In this document: positions 42,302 through 44,353 of the stretch, one piece after another
Layout of the letters: every line of letters starts with the position of its first letter
Position numbering within the stretch: position 1 is the stretch's first letter
Source of the DNA: a virus
Lineage: Duplodnaviria > Heunggongvirae > Uroviricota > Caudoviricetes
Length of the DNA stretch: 46,314 nt
IMG/VR virus record: IMGVR_UViG_2909303794_000006
Direction: 5' to 3' (one strand)
Made by a program: the position numbers and the translations under genes
Notes under the pieces: generated by a model
Databases searched by the model: none
Told to the model about the DNA's origin: nothing
Seen by the model: only the letters and a program-made list of their open reading frames with translations

Positions 42302-42987
42302 GCGAAATTAACTATCAGGCACTGCGTGAAGCGGCAGAGCGTGCAATTCCGGCAATGGAACGCCTGTTAATGTTGCCAGTTGATGATGATCTGATAAGCG
42401 AACAGGAACTTAAAGATTACGGTGTGGATATTGATGCGCTCAACGCCTTCAAATTTCTGACTGGACCAGAAACCGTGCTGGCGCTGCTGGATGAACGGGA
42501 AAGAAACCAGCAACACATCAAATCACGCGACCAGGAGAACGAGGATATTGCGCTTACGGTTGGGAGGCTGCGCGTTGAGCTGGAAGGCAAAGACAGCAAA
42601 ATAGCCAATCTTACCGCCGAACGCGATGCTCTTCGTGAAGGTGAGATGGGCGACGCTAGGCATAGCAACACACGGGCCGCAGCTGATATCTACTTCCAAC
42701 TGGTCGAGGAGTGCGAAATTCCTGCTGGCGGTTCTCTGGTCGAGTACGTTGACGATATGCGCGAGAAGCTGGAAGCCGCAGAGAAGCGCATTGCAGAGTT
42801 AGAAAGTGGTTCTCAGGCACAAAAGTTAGTTGAAGCAATCATTGTTGCGATAGAAAACGAACAGGAAAGGCTTTTTGATGAAGATTACCTAATGGATTCG
42901 AAAGAATGCATTGACGTAATTCGTGAAGAAGTAAAGCGATGGAATGATTCCCGTGCCGCTGGCATTCGCATCAACGGAGGTGAGTAG
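42298..42987 (+). CDS. ea22: Ea22-like coiled-coil protein
   Basis: 229-aa acidic coiled-coil ORF in the ea22 position. Confidence 0.6.
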   Translation: MSEINYQALREAAERAIPAMERLLMLPVDDDLISEQELKDYGVDIDALNAFKFLTGPETVLALLDERERNQQHIKSRDQENEDIALTVGRLRVELEGKDSKIANLTAERDALREGEMGDARHSNTRAAADIYFQLVEECEIPAGGSLVEYVDDMREKLEAAEKRIAELESGSQAQKLVEAIIVAIENEQERLFDEDYLMDSKECIDVIREEVKRWNDSRAAGIRINGGE

Positions 42988-43163
42988 TGCGTGTGGCATG
43001 TATCGGCTTGTTACCGTACCCGACTCGTTTTTGGGCTTCTGCGCTAATTGCAAAGCCACATGTCCTGATGACTGACAACATCATCCCGGCACCAAAGCGC
43101 CGCCATACCGGTATTGCAGCGGCACGACGAGCAGCAAAGAGACGCAGGAGAGCAAAACGATGA
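42987..43163 (+). CDS. hypothetical small Arg-rich protein (GTG start)
   Basis: about 58 codons after GGAGGTGA; stop overlaps next ATG (ATGA); not in ORF track. Confidence 0.35.
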   Translation: MRVACIGLLPYPTRFWASALIAKPHVLMTDNIIPAPKRRHTGIAAARRAAKRRRRAKR

Positions 43164-43348
43164 AAAACCGTAAAGCAAAGATTCTGTTAGCTCGCAGAAA
43201 CGGTGTTGGGGTCTGGCGATGGGTGAGGATTAGTAACAGACGAGTGAGGTTGATGGGGTGTTGCGGGGTGATGGGTCACAGTTGTTGCAAAAAGCCCAGC
43301 GCGGCGCAAAACCGCTGGAAAAACTACTTGCGGACTAAAGGAGAGTGA
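43160..43348 (+). CDS. hypothetical small basic Cys-containing protein
   Basis: 62 aa; AGGAGA Shine-Dalgarno. Confidence 0.5.
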   Translation: MKNRKAKILLARRNGVGVWRWVRISNRRVRLMGCCGVMGHSCCKKPSAAQNRWKNYLRTKGE

Positions 43349-43349
43349 T

Positions 43350-43559
43350 ATGGCTATCGCTGCAAGTTACACCATGCATCTCTATTGTGATTGTCGCCAG
43401 TGTACGGAAGGTGTATATCCAGTGCCAGACTTCGGTGAGTATATCGGTACGTCATGGTCTGGTTGTGCAAAAGAGGCCCGTAAAGACGGGTGGCGAATAA
43501 GCAAAGACAAAACACGTACTTTTGCGCCCGGGCATAAAGTTTTGAGGATTAACACATGA
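43350..43559 (+). CDS. hypothetical small Cys-rich protein (CDCRQC...C)
   Basis: 69 aa; AAGGAGAG Shine-Dalgarno; ATGA coupling to next gene. Confidence 0.55.
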   Translation: MAIAASYTMHLYCDCRQCTEGVYPVPDFGEYIGTSWSGCAKEARKDGWRISKDKTRTFAPGHKVLRINT

Positions 43560-44353
43560 CCACTATTACCAAAGAACGTATTGAATTGTTCATTAAAAAT
43601 CCGCTTGAAAACGGGCTTACTCGTGGCGAACAAATGGAACTGGCACGAATTGCACTGGCATCACTGGAACGCGAACTGATTCGCCACGAGCATGCCAAAT
43701 GGTCTGACTCCACATTTGGCTGCGTTGGCCCCATTGGTCCACTGAAACACCTCTCAAAAGAGGCTCTGGAAGCCGCAGCCGAACCAGACGATCTCAGCGA
43801 GTGGGCTGATATGCATTTCCTGTTGTGGGATGCACAGCGCCGTGCTGGCATCAGCGATGCTGAAATTACCGCTGCTATGGAAGATAAATTGAAGATCAAC
43901 ATGGAGCGCCAGTGGCCTGAACCAAAAGATGGTGAGCCTCGCTTGCACATTAAAGAACCCGGCAACTCTCCGGTAATTCCGGATGGTTTATCCACGGTAT
44001 GCGCTGAGGCTTATCAGGTTGTAGGAGTTATGGCAGATGCGCTTGGTGTATTCGGTGATGCAGCAGTACAGAAAGTTCTGGATAACCTGTCACAGCAAAA
44101 ACTTGTTCACAGAGATGTGCTGCCGTTCTCGCTTCCGGTGACTCCGGATGGTTGGATAAGCTGTAGTGAGCGAATGCCGAAAGAAACGGGTGACATTATT
44201 GTTGTTTCGGATGGCATTGTAATGTCCGGGATTTCTTATTCTCGTCGTGACGGGTTCTATATAGCCGCATTGGAGTACGACGACGATGAGCCAATTGGCG
44301 GTGTAACCCACTGGATGCCTCTACCAGAACCGCCTCGATTAAAGGAGCTATAA
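43556..44353 (+). CDS. DUF550 (MazG-like nucleotide pyrophosphohydrolase-type) N-domain plus DUF551-like C-domain protein
   Basis: family assignment recalled from C-terminal motif ...DGWISCSERMPKE...VTHWMPLPEPP; unverified. Confidence 0.6.
   Translation: MTTITKERIELFIKNPLENGLTRGEQMELARIALASLERELIRHEHAKWSDSTFGCVGPIGPLKHLSKEALEAAAEPDDLSEWADMHFLLWDAQRRAGISDAEITAAMEDKLKINMERQWPEPKDGEPRLHIKEPGNSPVIPDGLSTVCAEAYQVVGVMADALGVFGDAAVQKVLDNLSQQKLVHRDVLPFSLPVTPDGWISCSERMPKETGDIIVVSDGIVMSGISYSRRDGFYIAALEYDDDEPIGGVTHWMPLPEPPRLKEL

Follow-up and report, generated by a model that had tools for sequence, protein, structure and literature searches.

Between the Ea22-family gene and ea8.5 of a lambda-like Escherichia coli prophage (IMG/VR record IMGVR_UViG_2909303794_000006; 46,314 nucleotides, the whole of which is referred to here as the window), four open reading frames (ORFs) follow one another on the same strand at positions 42987-44353. 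We put at about 60% the probability that this stretch of the pL (exo-xis) operon consists of three separately mobile modules chained by translation: a pair of small basic proteins (ORF1 and ORF2), a putative zinc protein (ORF3) and a predicted enzyme of the MazZ type (ORF4). A reading made from the sequence alone had taken the four genes for one functional cassette. That view had to be given up because the parts occur apart: ORF1-ORF2 with Ea22 alone, ORF3-ORF4 without ORF1 and ORF2, and ORF3 on its own. All four products match PHROG families (Table 1), which amounts to earlier annotation only, and the families concerned are already catalogued in PHROGs, in Pfam or under the name "EaA". The locus is a common patchwork and not a new kind of system. 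What is modestly new is that a lambdoid EaA-type protein has the full MazZ active site, that ORF1 and ORF2 are real genes in fixed linkage with Ea22, that ORF3 has a putative zinc site and ORF4 a DUF551 core open to exchange, and that the "+GE" tail of Ea22 can be traced to a Shine-Dalgarno site.

The modular inheritance is seen when the locus is compared among prophages. The full four-gene order recurs in a second prophage, whose integration site adjoins mlrA. Another prophage, a very common one, has ORF3-ORF4 directly after Ea22 and lacks ORF1/ORF2; elsewhere ORF1-ORF2 accompany an Ea22-family gene in contexts lacking ORF3 and ORF4. Behind ORF1-ORF2 the gene content of 933W and TL-2011c is not that of the window: ORF3 is kept in the former and absent from the latter, and both still have, further on, a DUF551 protein whose N-terminal domain is a different one. 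Among 5426 complete E. coli genomes, the Ea22 tail with ORF1 and ORF2 is present in 426, ORF3 with residues 1-200 of ORF4 in 110, and the exact 1.55-kb arrangement in a single one, strain EC32. Exchange extends into ORF4 itself. Residues 1-205 are identical in four prophage contexts (synonymous divergence, dS, 0-0.03; window compared with loci L003, L015 and L021), and the linker is identical across the contexts compared (dS 0.02-0.03); the DUF551 core is a different sequence in each context (dS 0.9-2.6), bounded on its two sides by TPDGWISCSERMP and THWMPLPEPP, which are conserved. The match of ORF4 to PF04448 scored 52.8 bits against a cut-off of 22, with the flank motifs PDGWISCSERMP and THWMPLPEPP both present (alignment A7), and a DUF551 profile found no solved relative in PDB. 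Because its core is swapped between prophages, we infer that DUF551 is a binding or targeting module.

The chaining of the modules is read from the junctions. Each ORF starts between -4 and +2 nucleotides (nt) from the preceding stop and has its own Shine-Dalgarno site. ORF1 overlaps the ea22 stop by 1 nt (TAGTG) downstream of GGAGGTGA; ORF2 overlaps ORF1 at an ATGA preceded by AGGAGA; ORF3 begins 1 nt beyond ORF2 (TGAtATG), behind AAGGAGAG; and ORF4 overlaps ORF3 at another ATGA, with GAGGA upstream. These junctions are kept in relatives, Ea22/ORF1 in 12 contexts and the ATGA between ORF3 and the next gene in 6. By these features ORF1-ORF4 appear to form a translationally coupled operon segment. 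The sequence-only reading had given the span and the sizes of the four ORFs as they stand in the ORF list, and its strong Shine-Dalgarno sites and ATGA overlaps were likewise recovered, except that ORF2 and ORF3 are 1 nt apart. Gene order on the + strand, which from about 39.8 kb onward follows the direction of pL, is bet, exo, orf63, an orf61-like gene, a TraR/DksA-type orf73, the Ea22-family gene, ORF1-ORF4, ea8.5, xis and int. Genes downstream of bet/exo and upstream of xis/int are presumably carried, as in lambda, on the pL transcript, and the coupled chain is therefore placed there. A promoter and terminator scan gave no convincing signal within 42987-44353, Rfam returned a single sub-threshold chance match over 41000-46314, and NCBIfam had no match for the products of the locus. 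The four genes are indeed extra relative to lambda, as had been proposed: in lambda the interval from ea22 to xis holds ea8.5 and orf55 alone (PMC8614690).

The enzymatic component would be ORF4. Over profile positions 1-96 of 97, its DUF550 domain scores 141.4 bits (cut-off 23; E 1.1e-41) on PF04447, a family formerly called DUF550 and now named for the dATP/dGTP pyrophosphohydrolase of 2-aminoadenine phages (PMC12884076, PMC8342488). A full-length, single-sequence phmmer search of PDB produced noise only, and a profile of the domain was needed; built from diverse architectures, this profile had as its sole PDB match 7ODY_A, the MazZ protein of phage S-2L, over nearly the whole chain (E 9e-4). 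The probability assigned by hhalign to the same pairing was 90%. S-2L MazZ itself scores 44 bits on PF04447, above threshold, with weaker matches to MazG-like, PRA-PH and MazG. It is a crystallised dGTP/GTP pyrophosphohydrolase in which roles have been assigned to the active-site residues (PMC8342488). In the hmmsearch and hhalign alignments, its metal ligands E35, E38, E50 and D53 correspond to E69, E72, E82 and D85 of ORF4, and R83 to R118, the predicted transition-state residue. The pocket residues K76, N80, W85, R94 and H95 correspond to K111, N115, W120, R129 and H131, W15 to W49, and D60, which contacts the guanine 2-amino group, to D92. All mapped active-site residues are invariant in alignment A3, as are all but D92 (one Gly) in alignment A5. 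Judged by family membership and conserved catalytic residues, the DUF550 part of ORF4 is very probably a MazZ-family, MazG-like pyrophosphohydrolase domain. The large protein had been read as DUF550 (MazG-like) plus a DUF551-like domain, and this domain assignment was borne out: both Pfam families match, and profile search, hhalign and residue mapping all lead to S-2L MazZ.

By homology, ORF4 would bind two to three Mg2+ or Mn2+ ions through E69, E72, E82 and D85 and would cleave the alpha-beta phosphoanhydride of purine nucleotides, giving monophosphate and pyrophosphate. The most likely substrate would be dGTP or GTP, since D92 matches the MazZ contact with guanine N2; dATP is possible. The DUF550 protein of phage SH-Ab 15497 was identified biochemically as a dATP/dGTP pyrophosphohydrolase, according to the citing text of PMC12884076 and PMC8342488.

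Several points weigh against this picture. The position of E34, the fifth metal-binding residue of MazZ, is occupied by Lys (K68) in ORF4 and that of the O6 contact N20 by Phe, so that substrate preference could differ; MazZ-1 homologues, too, vary at E34 (PMC8342488). The AlphaFold2 (AF2) model of ORF4 is unusable, with a predicted local distance difference test score (pLDDT) of 41, although its secondary structure is helical, and the fold is taken from homology to 7ODY. The poor model is explained by an input of 18 sequences, all at least 84% identical; it places helices at H145-162 and H168-180 of the linker, at low confidence. The SH-Ab 15497 enzyme is a DUF5664-DUF550 fusion whose DUF5664 part is active alone (PMC12884076), and the activity of DUF550 by itself thus rests mainly on S-2L MazZ. 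A literature search found no enzyme assay or functional study of a lambdoid DUF550 protein or of ORF1-ORF3; a mention of eaa in Gifsy-1 proved irrelevant to the locus. No ORF of at least 150 amino acids (aa) in the window resembles purZ, datZ or dpoZ. Ten large ORFs of the window were run against Pfam, among them insertion sequence (IS) transposases, the O/P replication proteins, tail fibre, NleG and SieB, and one of the ten (26533-27291) matched no family. Two further prophage neighbourhoods, that with ORF3-ORF4 only and that at the mlrA site, also lack purZ and datZ. A Z-genome (2-aminoadenine) pathway was rejected on this ground, and the only known biological role of PF04447 becomes inapplicable. 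Adjacency is the only link of ORF1-ORF3 to the function of ORF4. Finally, an IS3-family transposase gene (38399-39286, +) lies inside the pL operon upstream of bet/exo, which leaves read-through uncertain, and expression of ORF1-ORF4 may be impaired in this copy of the prophage.

The role that we prefer for ORF4 is to reshape or clean up the pool of guanine nucleotides early after induction, which might blunt host responses; after it we would place counter-defence of the Atd1 kind and then removal of damaged purine deoxynucleoside triphosphates (dNTPs). As a counter-defence enzyme, a conceivable though unlikely function that the sequence-only reading had also raised as speculation, ORF4 would bring down GTP, dGTP or (p)ppGpp at an early stage of the lytic cycle. 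Immunity that relies on nucleotide signals would then be starved, or abortive infection that depends on the stringent response would be blocked. The one precedent is the phage MazG-like protein Atd1, which hydrolyses ppGpp and protects against TIR-STING toxicity (bioRxiv 10.1101/2022.06.09.495361). Atd1, from Pectobacterium phage PcCB7V, shares with the predicted ORF4 enzyme a small all-alpha nucleoside triphosphate (NTP) pyrophosphatase domain, guanine nucleotide substrates and a phage accessory region. It differs from the characterised PF04447 members in being described as MazG-like with twin catalytic motifs and in its (p)ppGpp substrate. The conserved guanine-contact Asp (D92) would agree with such a function, and a swapped DUF551 core would fit an arms race. 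ORF4 also shares its early accessory region with the TraR/DksA-type Orf73 (PF01258), whose lambda counterpart is reported to reprogram RNA polymerase in the manner of ppGpp/DksA, on the same ppGpp-RNA polymerase axis (PMC9239242). However, the family is common in virulent Klebsiella siphophages and in P22-like phages, with no known link to a defence system. PADLOC-DB 2.0 gave no match for ORF1-ORF4 or Ea22 at E <= 0.01, a result that says little on anti-defence since its models describe defence.

Sanitising is a classic task of the all-alpha NTP pyrophosphohydrolases in the MazG superfamily. A house-cleaning ORF4 would by analogy remove damaged purine dNTPs such as 8-oxo-dGTP, dITP and 2-oxo-dATP, and phage DNA made after SOS or oxidative induction would escape mutation. 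Such a role would sit well with the reported effect of the exo-xis region on H2O2-driven induction of Stx prophages (PMC4699033) and with the linkage of the DUF551 protein YfdS to H2O2 sensitivity (PMC10834534, PMC4776307). It is nevertheless doubtful, as the characterised PF04447 members act on canonical dGTP and dATP and the YfdS link concerns DUF551, not DUF550. Distinctly improbable, too, is the wider scenario in which an EaA-type MazZ would act in counter-defence or host takeover by removing dGTP, GTP or (p)ppGpp at lytic onset, DUF551 would be its arms-race specificity module, and ORF1-ORF2 would be obligate partners of a pro-lysogenic Ea22, overlooked because unannotated.

The modular reading of the locus requires that its small ORFs be genes. 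In a six-frame control on 10 diverged copies, ORF1 gave a ratio of nonsynonymous to synonymous divergence (dN/dS) of 0.43 in its own frame, with no stops; four other frames gave 0.95-1.47, and the antisense frame sharing third positions gave 0.36 but is interrupted by stops in 2 copies. The ORF1 frame is thus the only one open in all 10, and the stops rule out an overlapping or antisense frame as the cause of its conservation. A protein search reached ORF1 copies down to 58% identity; DNA of three of them (one each in a lambdoid contig of E. coli, a phage of Salmonella type and a prophage resembling Mu) gave a dN/dS of 0.3-0.5 at dS up to 0.9, and insertions and deletions in ORF1 are multiples of three. 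For ORF2 the ratio is 0.28, in the only frame open in 9 copies, and for ORF3 about 0.2; against relatives with dS 0.3-1.1 the two genes range between 0.2 and 0.4. All four ORFs are, by these substitution patterns (dN/dS 0.2-0.45 overall, each in the one frame that every relative keeps open), real coding genes under purifying selection, and the small ones, whose conservation in relatives had been singled out beforehand as decisive, are indeed conserved as ORFs. It is very unlikely that ORF1 or ORF2, or both, are instead recombination linkers or an RNA element, open by chance. In close relatives ORF1 DNA is 94-98% identical, with almost no synonymous change, as against 67-90% for ORF2 and ORF3, and variable segments flanked by conserved junction sequences occur all through the region, as such linkers would predict. 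RefSeq, moreover, leaves both genes without annotation in several genomes. Against this reading stand the protein-like divergence of ORF1 in its stop-free copies, the constraint on ORF2 and the lack of an Rfam match above threshold. The omission by RefSeq and its annotation pipeline (PGAP) affects 42987-43348 in several complete genomes, including the best-matching ones; records with missing or split calls are NZ_CP085619, NZ_CP035812, NZ_CP127035, NZ_CP074928 and NZ_CP043288.

The products of the ORF1-ORF2 pair had been described as Arg/Cys-rich. Their basic character was confirmed and their Cys richness was not: ORF1 (isoelectric point, pI, 12) has 15 Arg plus Lys and one Cys, and the four Cys of ORF2 (pI 11.7) are not conserved. 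ORF1, which starts with GTG here and with ATG in most relatives, has a variable N-terminal half and a conserved arginine-rich C-terminal tail, KRRHTGIAAARRAAKRRRRAKR; its homologues form 86 protein clusters, down to 58% identity, mostly from E. coli with one from Salmonella. ORF2 has conserved ends (MKNRKAKILL at the N-terminus and KKPSAAQNRWKNHLRTKGE at the C-terminus) around a variable centre, and its homologues number 137 phage records at 43-94% identity. In phiV10, TL-2011c, a P1-like phage and the mlrA-site prophage, ORF2 is present as two tandem diverged paralogues, 43-93% identical to the window copy (loci L004, 2674-3044; L005, 2674-3035; L006, 2674-3035; L021, 1923-2293). ORF1 always overlaps, by one base, an Ea22-family gene immediately before it, whether in lambdoid, P1-like phage-plasmid, Mu-like, Salmonella or other contexts, and ORF2 follows ORF1 in every locus examined, including those where ORF2 is not called as a gene. 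The junction between the two, GCAGGAGA(G/A)CA(A/G)A(A/G)CGATGAAAAACC, is near-identical in 10 of 10 independent contexts, with three variable bases and the ATGA overlap the same in each. The same trio of Ea22-family gene, ORF1 and ORF2 was encountered in a Mu-like transposable prophage with GemA and Mor as neighbours (L013, 3001-3347; L014, 2574-2920), where the ORF2 copy is not called.

The upstream Ea22 proteins carry unrelated C-terminal domains, but 9 of the 12 compared end in GGE, and seven of those nine in GIRI(K/N)GGE. The tails seen immediately before the stop codon are GIRI(K/N)GGE, KGGE and KGGA (window 42955-42989; loci L001, L003-L010, L013 and L014), and their codons constitute the Shine-Dalgarno site of ORF1 (GGAGGTGAGTA). 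A "+GE" motif at the C-terminus of Ea22 has been recorded, its significance unexplained (PMC7093339); the role of its codons as that site accounts for it. Similar tails end ORF2 (TKGE) and the 933W homologue of ORF3 (NKGE). Starting on the stop of whichever Ea22-family gene stands upstream, ORF1 would be made in step with Ea22, as would ORF2 through its ATGA. From composition and linkage, the two small proteins may act with Ea22 or on nucleic acid.

The second module, ORF3, is set apart by invariant C13, C15, C18 and H62, together with G47, W48 and P60, in homologues ranging from 33 to 100% identity. The pattern suggests a putative Cys3-His zinc site. The AF2 model describes a small alpha/beta protein (pLDDT 82); compared with solved structures it had no significant fold match in PDB, solved zinc fingers included, and its structural matches in BFVD are all uncharacterised phage proteins. 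Homologues were found in 433 phage records; those of Kuttervirus, of Klebsiella and Dickeya myophages and of Drexlerviridae are 32-46% identical. Where it occurs in the virulent phages of Kuttervirus and Drexlerviridae, ORF3 stands alone as an early gene with no constant neighbour, and it would be a separately mobile module. Its family extends across enterobacterial phages, both temperate and virulent. Three homologues in virulent phages (L027, 2998-3216; L028, 2501-2713; L029, 2498-2707) all keep the Cys3-His set; they lie in Salmonella Kuttervirus BSP101, two genes downstream of a dCMP deaminase gene; in Klebsiella phage VLCpiS13d; and in Escherichia phage ESCO41, between a DNA methyltransferase and a helicase gene. 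About 40 codons at the start of the next gene travel with ORF3: p53 of phiV10 has the same leader on a different body, and the ATGAccactattacca junction between ORF3 and this leader is the same in phiV10, L003, L015 and L021. The travelling leader is probably why PGAP splits the continuous ORF4 in the 43556-43678 region into a 40-codon "pseudogene" fragment and a shorter in-frame coding sequence beginning at Met32.

The DUF550 domain of the third module is widespread. It falls into 3435 clusters at 50% identity, with 72-99% identity among the best 150, and is found at every position in proteins of 117-457 aa. Sequenced phages contribute 543 records, mostly from virulent Klebsiella siphophages and the "EaA" proteins of P22-like phages, with mycobacteriophages also represented; homologues of ORF4 number some 8000 or more, including identical copies in E. 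coli. That the domain is a non-catalytic relic serving as a scaffold in a shuffled multi-domain protein, as its thousands of architectures and varied positions could suggest, is scarcely credible, given that neither the transition-state Arg nor any of the metal ligands varies and that 72-99% identity across architectures argues for strong functional constraint on the active site.

Among known proteins, the MazZ enzymes of S-2L (PDB 7ODY) and SH-Ab 15497 belong to the same Pfam family as ORF4, and in S-2L MazZ the four acidic ligands, the transition-state Arg, the Lys, Asn and Trp of the pocket, the C-terminal Arg-x-His strand and the guanine-N2 Asp all align. MazZ differs from ORF4 in setting and architecture. 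In Z-genome clusters MazZ occurs with purZ and datZ, and usually dpoZ, and the two enzymes named come from a cyanophage (S-2L) and an Acinetobacter phage (SH-Ab 15497), whereas ORF4 belongs to the early operon of a lambdoid E. coli prophage without a 2-aminoadenine pathway; and it stands alone or fused to DUF5664, whereas the DUF550 of ORF4 is fused to an N-terminal leader and DUF551. Other relatives go under the annotations "EaA", "Eaa-like" or "DUF550 domain-containing" in P22-like phages and phages of Klebsiella; their DUF550 is 58-83% identical, and they are likewise encoded in early accessory regions, but their architecture varies from phage to phage. L0065 of 933W, annotated as similar to P22 EaA, carries DUF551. 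At the level of the locus, the genes downstream of ea22 in 933W (L0063-L0068) and Phi24B occupy the same position and include ORF1-ORF2-ORF3 at 73-94% protein identity, a variable gene set after the conserved orf60a-ea22 block having already been noted in Stx phages (PMC8614690). Behind ORF3, 933W instead encodes a 95-aa protein and a protein that has DUF551 but no DUF550, and its ORF1 is unannotated. The same portable DUF551 is found in YfdS of the CPS-53 prophage and as the C-terminal domain of Ea22_V2, with other N-terminal partners than in ORF4; the only phenotypes reported for these carriers are H2O2 sensitivity and, for yfdQRST jointly, inhibition of replication initiation (PMC10834534, PMC4776307).

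Table 1. Coordinates of ORF1-ORF4, their domains and the flanking genes in the window.
Feature	Coordinates	Strand	Length	Remarks
Ea22-family gene	42298-42987	+	229 aa	PF13935, E 4.5e-28; last codons, AAGIRINGGE and stop, hold the ORF1 Shine-Dalgarno site
ORF1	42987-43163	+	58 aa	GTG start; phrog_13831
ORF2	43160-43348	+	62 aa	phrog_1380
ORF3	43350-43559	+	69 aa	phrog_926
ORF4, whole gene	43556-44353	+	265 aa	PF04447 and PF04448
ORF4, N-terminal leader	43556-43678	+	aa 1-41	MTTITKERIE at N-terminus; phrog_3323, phrog_10451 and phrog_660 match aa 1-48
ORF4, DUF550/MazZ-type domain	43679-43966	+	aa 42-137	PF04447, E 1e-41
ORF4, linker	43967-44149	+	aa 138-198	phrog_28884 matches aa 145-195
ORF4, DUF551 domain	44150-44335	+	aa 199-260	PF04448, E 7e-14
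ORF4, E69 codon	43760-43762			predicted metal ligand
ORF4, E72 codon	43769-43771			predicted metal ligand
ORF4, E82 codon	43799-43801			predicted metal ligand
ORF4, D85 codon	43808-43810			predicted metal ligand
ea8.5 homologue	44468-44749	+	93 aa	ATG at 44468; PF20735, E 5.6e-15; downstream boundary

Some features of the surroundings are recorded for completeness. An AT-rich gap of about 110 nt (44354-44467; GC 0.38-0.40) precedes ea8.5, and three terminator-like hairpins with T-runs lie between ea8.5 and xis (44768-45014, +), flanking a 55-aa ORF (44838-45005). The orf73 gene (42080-42301, +) encodes a TraR/DksA-type zinc-finger protein upstream of the predicted guanine-nucleotide pyrophosphohydrolase ORF4. 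Besides the IS3-family element, the window contains an IS21-family istA/istB pair (30042-31843, +) in the nin/replication region and an IS1 transposase gene (2392-2895, +) near the tail-fibre end; with three insertion sequences, the prophage is probably defective. A gene for an NleG-type type III secretion effector (1396-2085, -; PF06416, E 4e-44) lies beyond the tail-fibre genes and suggests that the E. coli background is of the attaching-and-effacing type or that of a related pathogen.

The common EaA/DUF550 protein, whose gene a large proportion of E. coli genomes carry, is seen to keep the full MazZ active site, which gives it a concrete predicted activity, purine (deoxy)nucleoside triphosphate pyrophosphohydrolysis. 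The Shine-Dalgarno account of the Ea22 "+GE" tail solves a small puzzle of the literature. With ORF1-ORF2 real, usually unannotated and tied to variants of Ea22, published phenotypes of ea22 deletion or overexpression may need to be re-read in terms of polar or partner effects.

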